Shown: positions 26,773 to 37,092 of the stretch, one piece after another | How the letters are laid out: each line of letters begins with the position of its first letter | How positions within the stretch are numbered: the first letter of the stretch is position 1 | Source of the DNA: Leptolyngbyaceae cyanobacterium | GTDB lineage: Bacteria > Cyanobacteriota > Cyanobacteriia > Phormidesmidales > Phormidesmidaceae | DNA length: 64,000 nucleotides | Assembly (NCBI GenBank): GCA_965263355.1 | Contig: CBDHHL010000032.1 | Coordinates: 1,344,001-1,408,000, forward strand | Direction of reading: 5' to 3' | Position numbers and translations under genes: made by a program | Notes under the pieces: generated by a model | What the model was told of the DNA's origin: nothing | The model's database searches: none | The model's input: the letters and a program-made list of their open reading frames with translations, nothing else

Positions 26773-27366
26773 ATGCCGTATAGCAAATTCAGCTTACAGA
26801 AAGTACAGCAAGAGTTTGGCCTCATTATCCATGAAGCCATCCATTTTTTACCACAATTGCCTACCGTCTCGCCGGATTCCCTATTAACTGCAACATTGGC
26901 AGATAGTCTTCCCTTAGCCCTGGCCCAGGGAAATGAGAAGGCACGTAGCGAATGGATTATTAATCCAATTTTGACGGCAGTACGGCGATTGGCCAATACC
27001 AAAGTCAGCGTATTCTCGGGCAAAGAGTTTAACGTTGATTCAGAGCGCGACCTGGTGGGTTATGTGGATTTTTTGATTGCCCGCTCCCCCAGGTTGCTAG
27101 TGTTAGAATCGCCTGTGGTGATGATGGTGGAGGCAAAGCCAGAAAATCTAAATGCAGGTTTAGGCCAGTGCTCTGCTGAAATGGTAGCCGCACAAATTTT
27201 TAATCAACAGCCGGAAAAAACAATTTATGGCTGTGTTACTAACGGTGAACTCTGGAAATTCCTTAAACTTCAGGGAACAGAGTTGACCATTGATTTAGAA
27301 GCCTATAGCCTGGAGCCGCTGGAACGCTTACTGGGTATCTTGATTTATTTAGCCTGTGAGGGCTAA
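26773..27366 (+). CDS. Cyanobacterial hypothetical protein, PD-(D/E)XK-like
   Basis: NEKARSEWIINP; VDFL...VEAK..NLNAGLGQC; YGCVTNGELWKF. Paralogous to 46212-46712. Confidence 0.7.
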   Translation: MPYSKFSLQKVQQEFGLIIHEAIHFLPQLPTVSPDSLLTATLADSLPLALAQGNEKARSEWIINPILTAVRRLANTKVSVFSGKEFNVDSERDLVGYVDFLIARSPRLLVLESPVVMMVEAKPENLNAGLGQCSAEMVAAQIFNQQPEKTIYGCVTNGELWKFLKLQGTELTIDLEAYSLEPLERLLGILIYLACEG

Positions 27367-27391
27367 CTATTTGCGACTGGAACTCTTCCAC

Positions 27392-27997
27392 TTACCAAAC
27401 TTGAGCCATAGGCAATGTAAAACCTGGTAGTTCTGGATCACCGCTAACAGCATCAGGATTTTCAAGTATCTGAGAAGCTTGATTAGGGCGATAAACATAA
27501 ACTGTATGATTCTTACGATCAATTAACCACCCCAGCGATACGCCATTATCCATATATTCCTGCATCTTGGTTTGCAGGCCAGTCAGAGTATCACTGGCCG
27601 ATCGTCGTTCAATGACAAAATCAGGCGAGATCGGGGCAAAGGATGCCTTTTCTTCTTCGGTCAAGGTATTCCAGCGTTCTAATTTAATCCAGGCTGCACC
27701 GGGTGAACGAGTTGCACCATTGGATAATGTAAACCCTGAGCTAGAGTCAAAACCTAACCCGGTAGCATCCTGTTGGGTCCATATCCAAAGAGAGGCGGCT
27801 AAATTAAAGTTACGGTTCCCAGTATCTGAAAATGCGGGTGGCATAATCACCACATCCCCTGTGGCTGTACGTTCAATGCATAAATCCCGATTGGCCTGAC
27901 AAAAGGCGTAAAATTCATCGCGGGTCATGGGAGCAGCCGTGGGTAGCGAAACGGTTAAGGGAGTTGTTTCCGTTTGGATGCGTAGGGTCGTTGTCAT
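27392..27997 (-). CDS. Uma2-family endonuclease
   Basis: ERTATGDVVIMPP; FDSSSGFTL; PDFVIE; KMQEYMDNGVSLGWLID. Confidence 0.9.
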   Translation of the reverse strand: MTTTLRIQTETTPLTVSLPTAAPMTRDEFYAFCQANRDLCIERTATGDVVIMPPAFSDTGNRNFNLAASLWIWTQQDATGLGFDSSSGFTLSNGATRSPGAAWIKLERWNTLTEEEKASFAPISPDFVIERRSASDTLTGLQTKMQEYMDNGVSLGWLIDRKNHTVYVYRPNQASQILENPDAVSGDPELPGFTLPMAQVW

Positions 27998-28111
27998 TGC
28001 TATGGTCCCTTATGCCAAGCGATACCGTTGCTTAGATTCTAGCGTCTCCACAGGAGTGCCTTCAACACGAACAGCATAATGCTGATGCAGACGATTGGTA
28101 AAATAACTGGT

Positions 28112-28339
28112 TAGGGGCTAGCAGCCAAATAAAATACCAGCTTGAAAATATGCTTCAGACTTTCCTCACCTTAAGAAGGGGAGGTGCCGTAGGCGGAGGG
28201 GTTTTGACCGATAACGCTAACTGTCAATAACCCCCTGTAAGTCCCCCTAAGCCCTCTGGGCAGGCTTCGCCAACGTAAGGGGGACAGCAGATCTCAAACA
28301 TGTTTCAAAACGGTACATTATTTTCAGGCAGACGCCTTA
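28112..28339. mobile_element. MITE-like small dispersed element with nested palindromes
   Basis: TA at both ends; ~60-bp imperfect TIRs (AAATAAAATACCAGCTTGAAAATATG vs AAATAATGTACCGTTTTGAAACATG); internal GTCCCCCT...AGGGGGAC stem. Confidence 0.6.
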
Positions 28340-28420
28340 CAATACGATTTATCAAATATTGGTGTGCTAACCCCTACGAGATAATCTCCTTTAGGAGCAC
28401 TAACTACAACTGGTCGAACT

Positions 28421-29023
28421 GTGGATATTCAAATTCGTGAATCAACGTCTGACGATCTTGAGAAAATAATAGAATTACAGACTATTGCCCTAAAAACGTT
28501 ATCAGTCAGTTATAACGCGGCTCAGATTGCGTCTCTGATTCGCAGTCAAACCTCCTGGAGATATTCACAAGACGAGTTATCTGTCGTAGCAGAACAAAAC
28601 CGTCGTATTATCGGCGTTGCCTCTCTTCTTGTTCTACAAGAAAGGATCAGTGGCGTCTATGTTCATCCAGATTTTATGCGTCAGAACATAGGCTCTCAAC
28701 TGCTTAAGCATATAGAGGATATTGCCATTGAGAAAGAATGCAAAACCATTTATGTCACCTCATCATTAGACACCGTCGATTTTTATGAGGCTAATGATTA
28801 CAAAAGGATTCGTCCTTCAGGTTTTTATTCGGAACGACGAGTCTGGATACCGTGCATCAATTTAGAGAAACAACTGATTGATGCACCAAGATTTAAAAAA
28901 ATCTTGCAGTATATTGTTTCTCGACTAAGGCCAGTTTTGTTATTTATTGCAGTTACAGCTGTGGTAGCTTTCGTATTAATTACCGTACTCTATATATTCA
29001 GCGTGGTTTTCAATGTATTATAG
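28421..29023 (+). CDS. GNAT-family N-acetyltransferase with C-terminal TM helix
   Basis: VYVHPDFMRQNIGSQLL; VDFYEANDY. Confidence 0.85.
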   Translation: MDIQIRESTSDDLEKIIELQTIALKTLSVSYNAAQIASLIRSQTSWRYSQDELSVVAEQNRRIIGVASLLVLQERISGVYVHPDFMRQNIGSQLLKHIEDIAIEKECKTIYVTSSLDTVDFYEANDYKRIRPSGFYSERRVWIPCINLEKQLIDAPRFKKILQYIVSRLRPVLLFIAVTAVVAFVLITVLYIFSVVFNVL

Positions 29024-29180
29024 ATAAACTCAGTATAAAAACGCTCTGATGGCTCAGGCCTTTTGGTTTTTATAACTTTTATAAGATTTTTGCGTCTAAA
29101 ATTTCGAATTTCTATGTTTAACCCCTGACCTATCAAGATAGACAGGCTATAGTAATGGCGAACTCTCCCATGCCCTATCA

Positions 29181-30281
29181 ATGCGTAAAGTTCTATTTCT
29201 TGCTTCTAATCCTAAGGATACGGGTCGTCTTCGATTAGACCAGGAACTGCGGGAAATTGATGAAGGGCTTAAACGAGCCAGTCGTCGGGATGACTTTCAA
29301 CTGGCTCAGCGGTTAGCTGTGCGCCCACGAGATTTTCAGCGGGCTATGCTAGATGAAACGCCACAGATTGTCCATTTTTCTGGCCATGGTGCAGGCGCAG
29401 ACGGTATTTGTGTGGAGGGGCCAACGGGTGAGGTTCAGTTAGTCACTGGTGAAGCTCTGGCAAATTTATTTGAGCTTTTTTCAGATAGTTTAGAGTGCGT
29501 GGTTTTGAATGGGTGTTATTCAGAACTACAGGCAGAAGAGATTAAGGCCCATGTTCCCTATGTGATTGGGATGAATCAGACGGTGGGAGATACGGCAGCC
29601 ATTGAGTTTGCTGTGGGGTTTTATGATGCCTTAGGTGCTGGGCAATCGGTTGAAAAGGCATTCAAATTTGGCTGTGTGGCGATGACCATGGCCGGTACTG
29701 GGGAGCAGCATAAGCCTATCTTACTCAAAGGTACTGCTATGGTTACAAAATCGACTCAAGCTGAAAGCAGTGCTTCTGGTCAAGTAAATTCAGTCGCTGA
29801 ATCGAAGCCAGAACCTGCGGTATCTATGAAAAAAGATGCTCTGGAAGTATTTTTCTCCTACGCCCATGAGGATGAAAAGTTGCGGGATAGGCTAGCCACG
29901 CATTTAAAACTATTGGAACGACAAAAGGTGATTTCGGCCTGGTATGACCGGGATATTACAGCTGGGGATGAGTGGAAAACAGAGCTTTTAGAGCAGTTGG
30001 AGCGGGCTGATATTATATTGTTGCTAATTAGCTCAGATTTTCTGGCTTCAGATTTTTGTTGGGGTGTGGAGCTAGAGCGGGCTATGAAACGACACACTGA
30101 AAAATCGACCTGTGTGATTCCGATTATTTTGCGGGATGTTGACTGGACAAGTGCACCTTTTGCCAAGTTGCAGGCGTTACCGAAAAATGCGGAGCCAGTA
30201 ACTAACTGGACAAACCAGGATCAGGCATTTACGGATATTGCTAAGGGCATTCGTAAAGTAGCTGAACGTCTAAAAAAGTAG
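29181..30281 (+). CDS. CHAT-domain plus TIR-domain protein
   Basis: KVLFLASNP..LRLDQE; IVHFSGHG; VVLNGCYS (His/Cys dyad); VFFSYAHED; LLISSDFLAS.FCWGVEL. Confidence 0.9.
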   Translation: MRKVLFLASNPKDTGRLRLDQELREIDEGLKRASRRDDFQLAQRLAVRPRDFQRAMLDETPQIVHFSGHGAGADGICVEGPTGEVQLVTGEALANLFELFSDSLECVVLNGCYSELQAEEIKAHVPYVIGMNQTVGDTAAIEFAVGFYDALGAGQSVEKAFKFGCVAMTMAGTGEQHKPILLKGTAMVTKSTQAESSASGQVNSVAESKPEPAVSMKKDALEVFFSYAHEDEKLRDRLATHLKLLERQKVISAWYDRDITAGDEWKTELLEQLERADIILLLISSDFLASDFCWGVELERAMKRHTEKSTCVIPIILRDVDWTSAPFAKLQALPKNAEPVTNWTNQDQAFTDIAKGIRKVAERLKK

Positions 30282-30326
30282 ATGCCCCAGAGACTAGAGA
30301 GGGTACTGAGACAGTGCCCATGGGGG
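30272..30326 (+). promoter_or_regulatory. Candidate -1 programmed ribosomal frameshift signal (A_AAA_AAG plus downstream stem-loop)
   Basis: Heptamer at 30272-30278 in the correct phase just before TAG; the -1 frame is open into the NB-ARC ORF; stems CCCCA/TGGGG and GGGTACTG/CAGTGCCC. Confidence 0.6.
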
Positions 30327-31151
30327 AGTTGCTTAATGTGCCTACATTGCCGGATAACTTTTTATCTAGACCAGAGGACTTGGCGGCGCTGAAGCTGCAA
30401 ATATTGGGCCAATCGCAGCAGGCTGTTGCCGTAACGGGTAAAGCCGTTGGTGGTGGCAATGTCAGCATTCAGGGGATGGGAGGTATTGGCAAGTCGGTAT
30501 TGGCAACGGCACTGGTGCGAGATGAGGCGGTACGTTGTGCTTATCCGCATGGATTGTTTTGGGTTACGCCAATTATTGTTTGACTATAACTGGCTGCAGG
30601 CGCAGCTAAACGCTAATGGTATCAATGGCCTGCTGGCGGACTATGACTGGCTCACTGATGACAAGACTCTCAGACTGTTGCAGAGTACATTGCGATTGTC
30701 GGCTCATGTGTTGACTACGAAACCACAACAGCTTAACCAGAGGCTTTGGGGACACCTGAGAGATAGACAACAACCAGACGTTGACAGCTTGTTAAATCAG
30801 GGTGCTGCGCAACAACAGTCTATATGGCTGCGGCCCCAGAAAGTCAACCTGACAGCTCCTGATGGGCCAATGATCCGCACCCTGGAAGGTAGACAACAAC
30901 CAGACGTTGACATAGCTCCAGGGTCCAGGGTCAATTCAGTGGTGATGAGTGCTGATGGCAGCCTCGCCCTCTCCGGCTCTGACGACAATACGTTGAAGCT
31001 GTGGGGTCTGACCACAGGCAAGTGCTTAGCTACCTTCTGTAGCGATCATCCATTCTATTCCTGTGCCCTGTCTGCCGATGGTAGCACCATTGTTGCTGGC
31101 GATGCGGCAGGCACTGTGCATTTCTTTTCTGTTATTGAGCCTGGCAACTAA
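30314..31151 (+). pseudogene. NB-ARC / APAF-1-helical / WD40 (NLR-like STAND) gene collapsed by internal deletions
   Basis: VPTLPDNFLSR; P-loop GMGGIGKS; GLFWVT, then a frame jump to LLFDYNWLQ..LLADYD; only about 2 WD40 repeats remain (SGSDDNTLKLW; AGDAAGTVHF). Confidence 0.85.
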
Positions 31152-31755
31152 ACGTTTGTCATATTTGGTGTTTAGGTTAAGACCGAGTGAGGAAGAAATG
31201 AAGAAGAAAACAATAGCAGGGTAACAGCTAGGAATAGCCCAGTACGTTGGCTTATAGGACGGCGTTCCGGCCCTGCCCATAGGGAAACCCAATAAGCCTA
31301 AATTGCAAACCTTGTTGTTTCCAGAAAAGGAACTCGGAGGATTACCCCTACAAGATGATCTAATTTTGAATCAGGTTGAAGAAATTAGGATTTCACCTAG
31401 CACAAATCAAAATTTCACAAAAAGGACTGTAATCACAGATATTTTGGGCTTTAAACATAAAATCCACAATTATTGTGTCTTTATGTTAAGTGACCGTAGA
31501 ACTTGCCATAGATAGGTGTTCACATATCAATTCTATTTTTATTCTTAAGTGAAAAGCACAGGTGTTAAACATCGACCCATGAAGTACGTAAAAAGTTTCA
31601 TATACATTACGTAAAGACAGCGTGGTGAAAGCCTGGTTGCCAATAGTCTTTACAGTCTGCACTTAGGTCATTTCTTAAAGTCCTGAAATGCCCTCATCAA
31701 ACTTATATTACCTACCCAACTAATAAATATGCTGACGCTTACTTGTATCGATGAT

Positions 31756-34752
31756 ATGGCAAACAAACAGATATCGGTGGCGTTTCCCCATCGGGAAATA
31801 GCTGCTAAGGCTAAAACTGTTATTTTTGATTCACAGATTGAAGACCTAAACCTACTATTAGATGGTTTACATGGCAATGTTCAGGCCCATGTGCTTAACC
31901 AGGACCATGATGGTTTAGAGCAGATAACAACATTTCTGCAGCAAAATCCGAGCCAGGATTTAACCCTGATCGCCCACGGCTTCCCCGGTGGTATACGCCT
32001 TGGCTCTAGCCTATTAGACCGTAAGACCTTAGACCATTACGCCCAACAACTGCAGCAGTGGTTTGTGCCAAATGGCCAAGCTCAACTGACCCTGATGGCC
32101 TGTAATGTAGCTCAGGGCAGTGTCGGTCAAGCGTTTATCCAGCAGCTGGCTGATATCACCTCGGCTGAAATTATTGCGAGTTCTCAAATCCTGGGTAATG
32201 GTAACTGGCTACCCGCTGCTAACGCTCTATTTACAACAGAAACCCTAGATTGTTATCGTAGCACCCTAACCTGGACTGGGGTAGGCCCCACCCTTGGTCA
32301 AGATATTGCCAATGAATTTGACATTGAGGTGGACAGTCAAGGAACACCTTACATTATCTTCCAGGATGGCAGCAACGACTCAAAACTCACGGTTAAACGG
32401 TTTGATGGGACCAATTGGGTCGATGTCGGTACACCAGGATTTCCTGGCGGTGATACTAGCTTTGTAGGGTTAGAGTTTGACTCTAATGACACGCCCTATA
32501 TTGCCTTTAGAGATAGTGCAAACAAAAGTAGAGCTACCGTAATGCAGTTTAACGGTAGTGATTGGGTCTATGTTGGCGACCCTGGTAAGGCTTCTGTGGG
32601 TGGTTTGAAGGATATTAGCCTTACCTTTGATGGGGATACGCCCTATATTGCCTACACCGATAGAAGCCAGAATAGCGGAGCTACTGTGCGAACCTTTGAT
32701 GGCACAGCTTGGATAGATGTTGGCCAGCCTGGGTTTTCGAGTGGTGCAATTGAGGCAGCTGACTTGAATGTGGATGGCAATGGTATTCCCTACATTGCTT
32801 ATCTTTCGCTAAGTGGCCTCACAAATAAGGTCACTGTGCAACGGTTTGTTAATGGTCAATGGACTGTTGTTGGTACGGAGGCATTTTCTGCTGGAGCCGA
32901 GTCCTACGCACCCGACATCGAATTTGACAATAATAATGTGCCCTATATTGTTTATCGTGCACGGGGCAATGGTGAAGGTAATAAAGCAATTGTAGAAACA
33001 TTCAACGGCACGGACTGGGTCCGAGTTGGTAATTCTGGTGCTTCTATTGCAGGCGGATTTCATCCTGATCTGGAGTTTGATAATAATAATGTTTTACATG
33101 TTGCTATTGTCGATCAGGCTAAGAAAGATAAGGTTTCGGTCAGAGTATTAGAGGGGAATAATTGGGTCTATTTTGGGGATGATGGATTTTCCATTGGTCC
33201 GATGAACTTTCCTGACCTTGAGTTTGATGCTAACAATATTCCCTATGTCCTCTATCGAGAGACCTTTGATGATACAGGGGCCAGGATTGATAGCGCCGTT
33301 GTTAAACGTTTGGGAGATCCACCTGTCATTGTTGATGAGATTGCGCCTGTACTGGCAAGTATTCGTCGTAAAGACCCCATAGATGAAATTGTTGAGGGCG
33401 GTACATTAGTTTTTGAGGCGACGTTTAGTGAAGCGGTGGTTGATGTTGACCCAGAGGATTTTGTTATTAATGGTCTGCCAACAGCCACCATTGATACTGT
33501 TACGGCCATCGACAGCACCCGTTATGAAATTTCTGTCATAGTAGGTGCCAGCAACTCTCTTGACGGAGTTGTTGGGCTTGATTTAGCTGGGGGCTCAGAT
33601 ATTACTGACATCGCTGGCAATGGCTTAAAGTTAGTCGAACCTGCCATTGATGAGGTTTATAAGATTGTTCAGCCAGAAATCCCAGTACTTCCCCCTGAAC
33701 CAGAGGAGCCGCCAGTAACTGAACCAGAGAAGCCGCCAGTAACTGAACCAGAGAAGCCGCCAGTAACTGAACCAGAGAAGCCGCCAGTAACTGAACCAGA
33801 GAAGCCGCCAGTAACTGAACCAGAGAAGCCGCCAGTAACTGAACCAGAGACTGAAATACCTTCCGTAAAGGATGATGATGTGACTGGCCTACTTGATATA
33901 GTACCGGCTATCAATGGTGTGGAAGTCACAGAATTGGGTAGTGATAATACGATCCGGTTAACGTTCTTGCAAGGAACAGTTACTAATGTCACTGAGGTTC
34001 TGATTTTTAGTGAGGCCAGTTCTGTTAATGGGCAGAACGAGATTGTTGGTCAGTTCTCACTACTGAATTATGCAGAATTGTTGATGGACCCTGTGCCTCG
34101 TTTCACAGTCGATAGTAACGCTGTTGCCTCCGGCGATAAGTTCCGGTTTGCTATTCAGGATGATGGTGCGACTTTGTTTGCAACCCCGACAACGCTATCT
34201 GAGTCTGCAGCGCGGCTAAACTTTGGTAATGGTTTTAGTTTTAATGTGGAGTTGGCAACCGAAACTGACACTACGAATCTGTTGGTCAACGATGCTCAGT
34301 CGATTGATTTAACTGGACAAGCGTCCACGATTGCGATGGAATTCTCGGCACATCGTGAGGCGGCCATGGACAATACGGTTGATTTGTATGCAGTTGATTT
34401 TGCTAATGGCGGCATCATTGATGAGCTTACAGGACAAACGCTAATGCCTGGAGATCCGGGGTATAAGGAAGCTGCGATCGCAAACCGATTGAACCTTAAC
34501 CTATCAGGCACAAACGGTGACGAAAATACCGTTGTCGCCCCAGTTACTGGTGGCATGCATCTGGGGATCTTTGTCATAATCGATGGGGTAGATCCCACTA
34601 CTGACGAAGTCTTCTTCAGCTATACCGGTGCTAATACCACCAAGCATGATTACATCAAGCATCTTGGCGACAATGCCTTTGGCATCGAGGATCAGTATGA
34701 CCTTGGCGATCGAGACTTTGATGATTTGGTTATTCAATTCTCCGTTGTCTAG
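31756..34752 (+). CDS. Large extracellular protein: DUF4347, beta-propeller-like repeats, Ig-like domain, Pro-rich linker, DUF4114-like C-terminus
   Basis: LIAHGFPG..MACNVAQG (DUF4347); six repeats of (P/H)YI....V..F(D/N)GT.W..VG; FEATFSEAV; GIEDQYDLGDRDFDDLV. Confidence 0.8.
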   Translation: MANKQISVAFPHREIAAKAKTVIFDSQIEDLNLLLDGLHGNVQAHVLNQDHDGLEQITTFLQQNPSQDLTLIAHGFPGGIRLGSSLLDRKTLDHYAQQLQQWFVPNGQAQLTLMACNVAQGSVGQAFIQQLADITSAEIIASSQILGNGNWLPAANALFTTETLDCYRSTLTWTGVGPTLGQDIANEFDIEVDSQGTPYIIFQDGSNDSKLTVKRFDGTNWVDVGTPGFPGGDTSFVGLEFDSNDTPYIAFRDSANKSRATVMQFNGSDWVYVGDPGKASVGGLKDISLTFDGDTPYIAYTDRSQNSGATVRTFDGTAWIDVGQPGFSSGAIEAADLNVDGNGIPYIAYLSLSGLTNKVTVQRFVNGQWTVVGTEAFSAGAESYAPDIEFDNNNVPYIVYRARGNGEGNKAIVETFNGTDWVRVGNSGASIAGGFHPDLEFDNNNVLHVAIVDQAKKDKVSVRVLEGNNWVYFGDDGFSIGPMNFPDLEFDANNIPYVLYRETFDDTGARIDSAVVKRLGDPPVIVDEIAPVLASIRRKDPIDEIVEGGTLVFEATFSEAVVDVDPEDFVINGLPTATIDTVTAIDSTRYEISVIVGASNSLDGVVGLDLAGGSDITDIAGNGLKLVEPAIDEVYKIVQPEIPVLPPEPEEPPVTEPEKPPVTEPEKPPVTEPEKPPVTEPEKPPVTEPEKPPVTEPETEIPSVKDDDVTGLLDIVPAINGVEVTELGSDNTIRLTFLQGTVTNVTEVLIFSEASSVNGQNEIVGQFSLLNYAELLMDPVPRFTVDSNAVASGDKFRFAIQDDGATLFATPTTLSESAARLNFGNGFSFNVELATETDTTNLLVNDAQSIDLTGQASTIAMEFSAHREAAMDNTVDLYAVDFANGGIIDELTGQTLMPGDPGYKEAAIANRLNLNLSGTNGDENTVVAPVTGGMHLGIFVIIDGVDPTTDEVFFSYTGANTTKHDYIKHLGDNAFGIEDQYDLGDRDFDDLVIQFSVV
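33695..33850 (+). repeat. In-frame 24-bp tandem repeat, ~6.5 copies (EPEKPPVT)
   Basis: Unit CTGAACCAGAGAAGCCGCCAGTAA. Confidence 0.95.
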
Positions 34753-34816
34753 TTTGATTTCCTAGGGTACCGCTCTCTATAGGCTGCTTATCCCATAGAG
34801 CAAAAATAGTACCCCT

Positions 34817-34847
34817 ACGCCTGGCTGGATATCCAGCCAGGCGTTTT
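34817..34847 (+). terminator. Probable rho-independent terminator
   Basis: ACGCCTGGCTGGAT|ATCCAGCCAGGCGT followed by a T run, 65 bp after the stop. Confidence 0.65.
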
Positions 34848-35475
34848 ATATGCAAAGTCGCCTAAAAAAGTTACGGGTTGACTCATCCCGTGCACTTACC
34901 TCCAACCCCTTATTTTCTGGGCAAAATCACCTACAGCTTCATCTTAAAAGGTTATCAGTATTCAAAGAAAACCTTGGTACACCTTTATACATGGAGAGCC
35001 AAACCCAAATGCTAGAAGGCTTTGGGGGTTTTTAAAAAACTTAGAAAAATATCCGGGTAAATCCGTAACTGTTCGAAGAGTAGAACGGATAGAATGCCTT
35101 GCTAGGGGCTATATCAAATCAAGTTTATCGTTCTTCTGTAGTCAGCATACCTGACTATGGTCAACTAATATCCAGGTTTTATAATCTCACAGCTTGACTA
35201 GCTTCCTCGCCCCAGGAAGCTAAGGGGCCATTGAGAAACACTGCCCGGCAGGATAGTGGTTTTTGCCTGGTATTCAACAAAAAACTCCTTAACTTTTGTT
35301 GATGCTGGCCCAGATATGGGAAAGCATTAGCTAGCGCTGCTTTATCAGCAATCAATCCGCGACTAATCCAGCAGTCTCAGATTGCAATGAGTTTAGTGCA
35401 TCTCTTAATTATATCATTAGCCTCTATGCGCTTTCTATTATCTGTCTTATCCCACATTCCCCTTAGCGAATTGTC

Positions 35476-35769
35476 ATGAAACAACAACGCTTTTGGCATA
35501 CCAAACGCCGTTGCCATATGTACCTGCCCGTTTCCAATTCTCCCGGCATGTTTATGTTCATGGGTAAACCGTGGAGTCCTAAGGCCTTACAAGCCCTAGG
35601 GTTTGTCCAAGAGCCCAACGAACAAAAAGTCGAACAGCCCAAACTTGTCTTTGGCGATCCCGAACGATTTCAGGGATCGTTCTGCAAGACTCAAGGCAAA
35701 GGATCCTCTCCATCTTGGGGAGCCATTGGTGGCTCTGGTGGCAAGGTAGGTCGAGCCCCTAAGAGTTAG
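35476..35769 (+). CDS. Hypothetical small protein
   Basis: 97-aa ORF followed by hairpin GTGCTCCCT..AGGGAGCAC (about 35794-35823); no recognisable family. Confidence 0.4.
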   Translation: MKQQRFWHTKRRCHMYLPVSNSPGMFMFMGKPWSPKALQALGFVQEPNEQKVEQPKLVFGDPERFQGSFCKTQGKGSSPSWGAIGGSGGKVGRAPKS

Positions 35770-36013
35770 CTTTGACTGCGCTCAGCTATAGGAGTGCTCC
35801 CTCTGACTGCACCCAGGGAGCACTTACGTTTATTACTTTCCCATTATCAGCCCTAGATGGATGATGGGACACCCTTAATATTTCGTTGAAAAATGCTATT
35901 TTTCAAAAGACTAAGGCATATTGCTTAAGGTTTATTTCAGATAGCTATTAGCGCTCAACCGTATGAGATCCTAGGGTACTCACGGATTCGTAGCATTTTA
36001 GACGCGCTTTTAG

Positions 36014-36988
<975 letters not shown>

Positions 36989-37092
36989 TTACTCATCTAT
37001 AAACAGATCCCAAAAAATCATCTTTCCTAGGGGCCTTTCCTGTACCATTGCCTGCGGGTTAACCCAACGCAGTTTCGGCACAGAATATCCCC

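Follow-up and report, generated by a model that had tools for sequence, protein, structure and literature searches.

A candidate programmed -1 frameshift between a CHAT-TIR effector and an Apaf-1-like sensor in cyanobacteria

The analysed stretch of DNA (the window, 64,000 nt from a Leptolyngbyaceae cyanobacterium) carries on its forward strand an intact ORF for a CHAT (caspase-like)-TIR effector of 366 amino acids (positions 29181-30281). Pfam places CHAT at residues 22-161 and TIR_2 at residues 223-331. His69, Cys112 and the TIR residue Glu297 are invariant in all 11 aligned homologues and presumably have catalytic roles. As the first-pass annotation had reported, the ORF ends with CTA AAA AAG TAG, and the sequence confirms a slippery heptamer A_AAA_AAG (30272-30278, forward strand) that includes the final two sense codons. 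With a -1 shift, the ribosome would decode GTA (Val) at the zero-frame stop TAG (30279-30281). The annotation was also right that the -1 frame is open into an NB-ARC P-loop. This frame (30266-30583, forward strand; KKVDAPETR...GMGGIGKS) encodes a linker and the first part of an Apaf-1-like NB-ARC domain (Pfam E 1.3e-5), with the Walker A motif GMGGIGKS at 30473-30496. A single copy of the 10-mer AAAAAAGTAG is present in the window, against 0.24 expected. Since such a 10-mer is not rare in 64 kb, the window by itself is weak proof and the case is made by the relatives.

We found no Rfam match in window positions 27000-37000 at E 0.1. The promoter and terminator scan gave seven promoter-like sites against 5.0 expected, and no terminators on the forward strand. 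Among the PADLOC 2.0 models, no NTPase model (Avs and similar STAND systems) matched; the matches were limited to ThsB1-like TIR, chat and repeats.

The syntenic orthologue in Leptothoe spongobia (L001), whose downstream neighbours are common to the window, has the identical 12-nt junction followed by an intact -1 frame of 1106 codons. This frame encodes an Apaf-1-like NB-ARC-WD40 sensor with NB-ARC, helical domains and WD40 propellers, as in AP-ATPases, and human Apaf-1 is its top match in the PDB (E 6.6e-48). The CHAT-TIR proteins of the window and L001 are 70% identical, with dS ~1.6 and dN/dS 0.135. For the window's -1 ORF (30266-30583) dN/dS against L001 is 0.198, and the sensor frames of two further relatives, L142 and L144, give 0.10 and 0.08 against L001. 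Purifying selection at dS ~1.6 with the junction kept is not expected of a broken gene. The A_AAA_AAG heptamer is identical in L001, L021, L142, L144, L231, L242, L247, L273 and the second site of L045.

In the window the sensor half is decayed, as the first-pass annotation had cautioned, and comparison with L001 shows that the decay goes beyond its wording. About 940 nt are gone at 30564/30565, corresponding to L001 sensor residues 103-414 with Walker B included, and this deletion shifts the frame, so that the -1 ORF stops at 30581-30583. Most of the NB-ARC domain is thereby lost and the NTPase is incomplete. What follows is an out-of-frame remnant (30565-31151, forward strand, stop at 31149-31151) of the post-NB-ARC helical region and the last WD40 repeats; Pfam detects WD40 in the third frame (30435-31151). 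Nearly all WD40 repeats are gone near 30890-30930. We compared the window with contigs of four public runs (X1, X3, X4 and X5). The first deletion is real, since the contigs of all four span it. The junction is covered by X1, X3 and X4 (X1 is possibly the window's own source), and none of these has an indel in the A6 run; sample X3 has one additional base within the TIR region. About 27 nt of the window (30891-30917), with a 22-nt repeat of 30765-30786, are missing from the X1 and X3 contigs and are either a strain variant or an assembly artefact of the window.

The locus is best explained as a decayed form of an effector-sensor locus of cyanobacteria. The proposal that one transcript gives CHAT-TIR as well as CHAT-TIR-NB-ARC-WD40 is supported as a reading, but in this strain the shifted product would be truncated to 467 amino acids (366 + 101). 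At this length no working sensor would be made, and CHAT-TIR is the sole likely functional part left by the deletion. Sensor loss at such loci is recurrent, since in L255 and L258 CHAT-TIR stands directly before the same DUF4347-type gene and the sensor is absent. In the window this gene (31729-34752) encodes a protein of 1007 aa (DUF4347...DUF4114) that carries a PPVTEPEK tandem repeat; it sits between the locus and the neighbours shared with L001, and is absent there in L001. Contraction of the sensor repeats is common: the close relative L143 and the proteins P0007 and P0008 have an intact NB-ARC and only about two WD40 repeats (577 aa).

To place the junction among its relatives, the sensor side was surveyed in 241 loci and the window, and 32 loci sharing 300 identical nt were dropped, leaving 210. 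In 31 of the 32 the upstream 80 nt are the same as in the representative. The exception is L143, a near-identical sibling of L142, in which a nonsense change destroys the heptamer. At least 100 in-frame residues precede the NTPase in 135 of the 210 loci, and 15 have a shorter N-terminus of their own with a start codon. In 49 an upstream ORF overlaps in the -1 phase (L042 is ambiguous); nine are short and by our rule lack such an overlap, and two are truncated. Among the 72 loci with an upstream CHAT/TIR homologue, 46 are in the -1 phase, 21 are fused in frame, four are in +1 and one is separate in frame 0. The phase is thus not random, and the homologues are not simple in-frame fusions with A7. 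Fifteen different spacings between stop and NTPase occur in the -1 class, which means that the phase survived many indels. Coupled bacterial genes also tend to the -1 phase, so the argument turns on the motif and not on phase by itself.

Of the 49 split loci, 46 have an upstream ORF that terminates in a shift-prone motif (A_AAA_AA[ACG] in 36, C_CCT in 10). Among 144 other long gene ends, taken from the cyanobacterial loci and the window as a control, one does so. The single control match is itself a -1 junction with a hairpin, leading from CHAT-TIR to NB-ARC-TPR on an Acaryochloris plasmid; L273 is likewise a CHAT-TIR to NB-ARC-TPR junction, with A_AAA_AAG. At least three types of signal occur in the family: A9-10 runs (30 loci, mostly Nostocales), C_CCT with a covarying hairpin (10 loci) and A_AAA_AAG (six loci). 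Many of the 30 A9-10 junctions of the Nostocales type are closely related in the tree, so these loci are not independent. The tree was built with FastTree from 128 rows, omitting rows below 212 bits as well as the window and L144, which are too short. Motif classes are interleaved with fused loci in it, and the same class stands before different NTPase clades. Since the tree is unrooted and its clades were not formally tested, we claim no order of events.

Structures downstream of the heptamer differ between the classes. In the window, the stem that the first-pass annotation had described is present: CCCCA (30285-30289) can pair with TGGGG (30321-30325) around the hairpin GGGTACTG-AGA-CAGTGCCC (30301-30319). 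The predicted outer stem (30285-30325, forward strand) begins 6 nt past the heptamer, and the whole fold is the predicted MFE structure (-18.7 kcal/mol), but its stability does not exceed that of shuffled sequences (z -0.86, with 37 of 200 shuffles equal or better); the window passes our hairpin rule (-16.7). The outer stem is not conserved in the two closest relatives, L001 and L144, and we rejected it as a conserved stimulator for both: the proximal stem is weak in L001 (-2.2) and absent in L144. The inner 8-bp hairpin is kept in the window, L001 and L144 with one-sided changes only. It lies 22 nt from the heptamer, covers a GTG at 30314 and abuts an ATG at 30320, and it may hinder internal initiation instead of stimulating the shift.

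Across the A_AAA_AAG class, four of six loci pass the hairpin rule, but 19 of 30 control positions also pass, so structure is only suggestive in this class. Unrelated hairpins start 4-7 nt past A_AAA_AAG in L021, L142, L231, L247 and the second site of L045, and L247 and L296 both retain a stem of 11-12 pairs although several stem positions differ between them. The C_CCT class has an 8-pair stem about 5 nt downstream, with 80 of 80 cells paired in the RNAalifold register and a median of -18.75 kcal/mol against -9.2 at control positions, and all ten loci pass the rule; a downstream structure is clear in this class only. Two pairs of this stem are compensatory (both from L103), and six of 500 shuffles score as high. 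In two subtypes of the A9 class the hairpin rule was passed by 0 of 17 and 6 of 13 loci. By inspection, the 28 nt upstream hold no conserved SD-like run in six loci. An SD-like stimulator is not required in all known -1 cases.

From these comparisons it is highly probable that the junction is a site of programmed -1 ribosomal frameshifting which yields a free effector and an effector-sensor fusion. Most ribosomes would terminate at TAG, yielding free CHAT-TIR. Some would slip back one base on A_AAA_AAG, with two Lys-tRNAs re-pairing on AAA AAA, and would read GTA in place of TAG to continue as ...ERLKK-VDAPETR. In the intact L001 orthologue the resulting CHAT-TIR-NB-ARC-WD40 fusion would have about 1470 amino acids. 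We infer that shifting occurs, and its rate and purpose, from what the loci display: the sequence, the phase, the conserved motif, the absence of start codons in most relatives and purifying selection on both frames. The computational evidence thus supports the frameshift interpretation of the first-pass annotation, with corrections on the stem, the signal types and the truncated product. The shifting would set the effector:sensor stoichiometry, as that annotation had suggested, and the locus may have a role in defence.

Alternatively, effector and sensor could be separate, translationally coupled genes, with the sensor starting at the GTG (30314) or ATG (30320) of the -1 frame (30314-30322, forward strand) and the -1 phase being the usual coupled phase. 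We consider this unlikely. GTG-CCC-ATG is retained in the window, L001 and L144, the public L001 protein (P0005) is annotated from this Met, L144 has GAGGT 7 nt before the ATG, and the loss of the proximal stem in L001 and L144 points the same way. Caspase-bDLD3 and AP-ATPase genes have also been described as an operon, according to the accessible text of Kaur et al. 2021 (PMC8195603). However, the window, L001 and L144 are the only three of the 49 split loci with an ATG before the domain; in the other 46 the sensor frame has its first ATG at model position 38-55, level with the P-loop or slightly ahead of it. No ATG, GTG or TTG precedes the NTPase in 36 of the 49, and in 22 the stretch ahead of the domain's conserved start is free of all seven start codons considered. 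L142, a sister locus, has neither the GTG nor the ATG but does have the heptamer and a hairpin, and the inner hairpin covers the GTG. Nor would coupling account for the shift-prone motifs that close 46 of 49 upstream ORFs. In the window's subclade, coupled initiation could run beside frameshifting and give three products. Three products, OrfA, OrfB and OrfAB, are known from IS3.

A change of frame made by RNA polymerase or in the DNA, that is transcriptional slippage or phase variation in the A run, is likely for part of the family, but quite improbable for this locus. The Nostocales junctions have A9-A10 runs, with the hairpin in none of the 17 loci of one subtype, and A8 and A11 variants lead to in-frame fusions (L125, L132, L139) or to the +1 phase (L127, L223). 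Such variation in run length (A8-A11), with fused and +1 variants, fits polymerase slippage or phase variation, and the accessible part of PMC3711429 links A-runs longer than seven to polymerase slippage. The A9-10 junction type may therefore work by transcriptional slippage or DNA phase variation. The window's run, on the other hand, is only A6 followed by G, is invariant in all six loci of its class and is unchanged in the X1, X3 and X4 contigs, while the C_CCT class has no run at all and a covarying hairpin at ribosomal spacing.

That a one-base deletion in an A7, either an assembly error or an old inherited mutation, broke an in-frame fusion is very improbable: in-frame fusions do exist (21 of 72 loci; also P0092, P0093 and P0107, which are CHAT-TIR-NB-ARC-TPR proteins), the window's sensor is decayed and X3 has its extra insertion in TIR, but the A6 in the contigs of three runs and the identical L001 junction led us to reject the assembly error, the orthologue keeps this junction at dS ~1.6 with the downstream frame intact and dN/dS 0.08-0.10 (L142 and L144 against L001), and three motif classes stand before several NTPase clades.

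The loci were also surveyed from the effector side, with CHAT-TIR as query in 172 related genomes. Among the best 30 loci, 16 continue for at least 80 codons in the -1 frame and none in +1. Seven of the 16 were already counted and nine are new, leading into NB-ARC, AAA_16-like or NACHT NTPases. In L242, L255 and L258, also among the best 30, a motif is kept without a sensor, and three more loci are interrupted by contig ends; in L288, too, the motif is kept without a downstream sensor. Judging by these four loci, the motif can persist after its use has ended, or can be retained in part for the sake of the protein's end. In a phylum-wide sample of 30 loci, gathered with the TIR domain alone as query, most were fused or standalone, and two continue in -1 into an NTPase, both with an A-rich heptamer (L279, L296). 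The device is thus common in one group of effector modules but is no general feature of TIR genes. Genes of the NACHT, AAA_16-like and NB-ARC-TPR kinds also follow this cassette. On the Calothrix sp. 336/3 plasmid (L272:6072-6114) a CHAT-TIR gene closes with A_AAA_AAG TAA, and its -1 frame continues without a stop into a CHASE2 gene whose annotated start is GTG. From this one example, the cassette may not be restricted to STAND partners.

The upstream ORFs end directly after an interaction domain, TIR or, in five of 20 scanned, bDLD3. As to purpose, the fused copy on an oligomerised Apaf-1-like NTPase could recruit free identical modules homotypically, comparable to CARD-CARD contacts in the apoptosome. 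A single gene would in this way replace a two-gene design with a duplicated adaptor. L035 has this duplicated design with the NTPase studied here, in two genes that each carry an adaptor-like module (55% identical), and L064 has a single copy of a related module (43% identical) and a C_CCT shift. This pair of examples suggests that frameshifting could replace the duplicated adaptor. The module (~75 aa, ...ALMDWAE...G.GL..L; L035:2264-2840, L064:5618-5932) has no Pfam match and resembles effector-associated adaptors; it is duplicated in the two-gene loci and single in the frameshift loci. A wider reading, for which we see the balance as even, is that frameshift cassettes are a portable joint in multicellular cyanobacteria. 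They would end CHAT, TIR, bDLD3 or EAD-like modules and move with the module onto Apaf-1-like, NB-ARC-TPR, NACHT, AAA_16-like and perhaps CHASE2 partners, giving a free effector and a same-module sensor: a bacterial apoptosome with its "procaspase" and "CARD-bearing scaffold" from one reading event.

As in dnaX and IS3-type frameshifting, an X_XXZ_ZZN heptamer lies here in phase ahead of the zero-frame stop, and the -1 frame continues without a stop into conserved coding sequence, in a phase that is conserved in homologues. To our knowledge, few cellular (non-mobile) bacterial genes use -1 frameshifting. In E. coli, A_AAA_AAG ranks with the three most efficient heptamers and C_CC.U belongs to the six active tetramers (PMC4066793). 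The dnaX and IS1/IS3-family cases (PMC4066793; PMC5009743) share A_AAA_AAG or Z_ZZN at the end of the first ORF, in many members a hairpin 4-10 nt 3' of it, and short plus fusion products. Unlike them, the present candidate concerns a chromosomal immune-type gene pair. Its family has three motif classes, an SD-like stimulator is not clearly seen upstream, and the proximal stem is weak in the window's subclade.

A 2026 survey (PMC13581612, accessible text) names cyanobacterial Apaf-1 orthologues with caspase-like N-termini. These bacterial orthologues have the same NB-ARC, helical domains and WD40 propellers, and the closest are in cyanobacteria, but they are described there as single polypeptides, whereas here the effector is joined out of frame. 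The word "frameshift" appears once in that text, for phage tail chaperones. Kaur et al. 2020 proposed, in the part available, that duplicated adaptor domains couple effectors homotypically to core NTPases (PMC7159879), and the corresponding text of Kaur et al. 2021 places caspase-bDLD3 genes in operons with AP-ATPases (PMC8195603). Both EAD/bDLD systems share with ours the operon of effector and STAND NTPase and the proposed homotypic adaptor, and the caspase-bDLD3 and AP-ATPase pairs are these very loci (bDLD3 in five of 20 upstream ORFs scanned). In the accessible text of both papers, however, the pair is two genes and "frameshift" is not mentioned; here one adaptor copy would serve both products. 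The available portions of a 2016 review (PMC5009743) and of the GeneTack paper with supplements (PMC3711429) gave nothing when searched for STAND genes. The literature searched, mostly outside subscription journals, held no report of such an effector-sensor frameshift or of -1 frameshifting in NLR-like immunity; the GeneTack database might list such loci.

If the frameshift reading is true, many cyanobacterial STAND proteins would be mis-annotated as effector-less with truncated N-termini (e.g. the Acaryochloris pairs annotated as two genes), which would affect surveys that class STANDs by fused effector and attempts to clone and test them. It would also offer a simple testable way to set the scaffold:effector ratio in the closest bacterial relatives of Apaf-1. 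For experiments the window copy is ill suited, and L001, the Acaryochloris plasmid loci or the Calothrix/Nostoc loci would serve better.

Several minor observations were made along the way. In L262, L263, L266, L269, L270 and L271 a CHAT module ends with C_CCT, one further codon and TAG. The hairpin there has the form GCCCCTYC...GGAGGGGC, and the -1 frame leads to a NACHT NTPase; these loci are a large sister family of the C_CCT class. Near position 1410 of L105, a 142-codon ORF is followed by a single in-frame TGA and then a start-less NB-ARC frame, so that the TGA is either a nonsense change or a possible readthrough site. Window positions 31229-31302 belong to a dispersed repeat (about 75-100 nt) that recurs on many contigs and also lies upstream of the L001 CHAT gene; it has no Rfam match. 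Finally, a 97-aa ORF (35476-35769; MKQQRFWHTKRR...) is conserved in L001 and lies upstream of a gene that we take to be protochlorophyllide-reductase-like.
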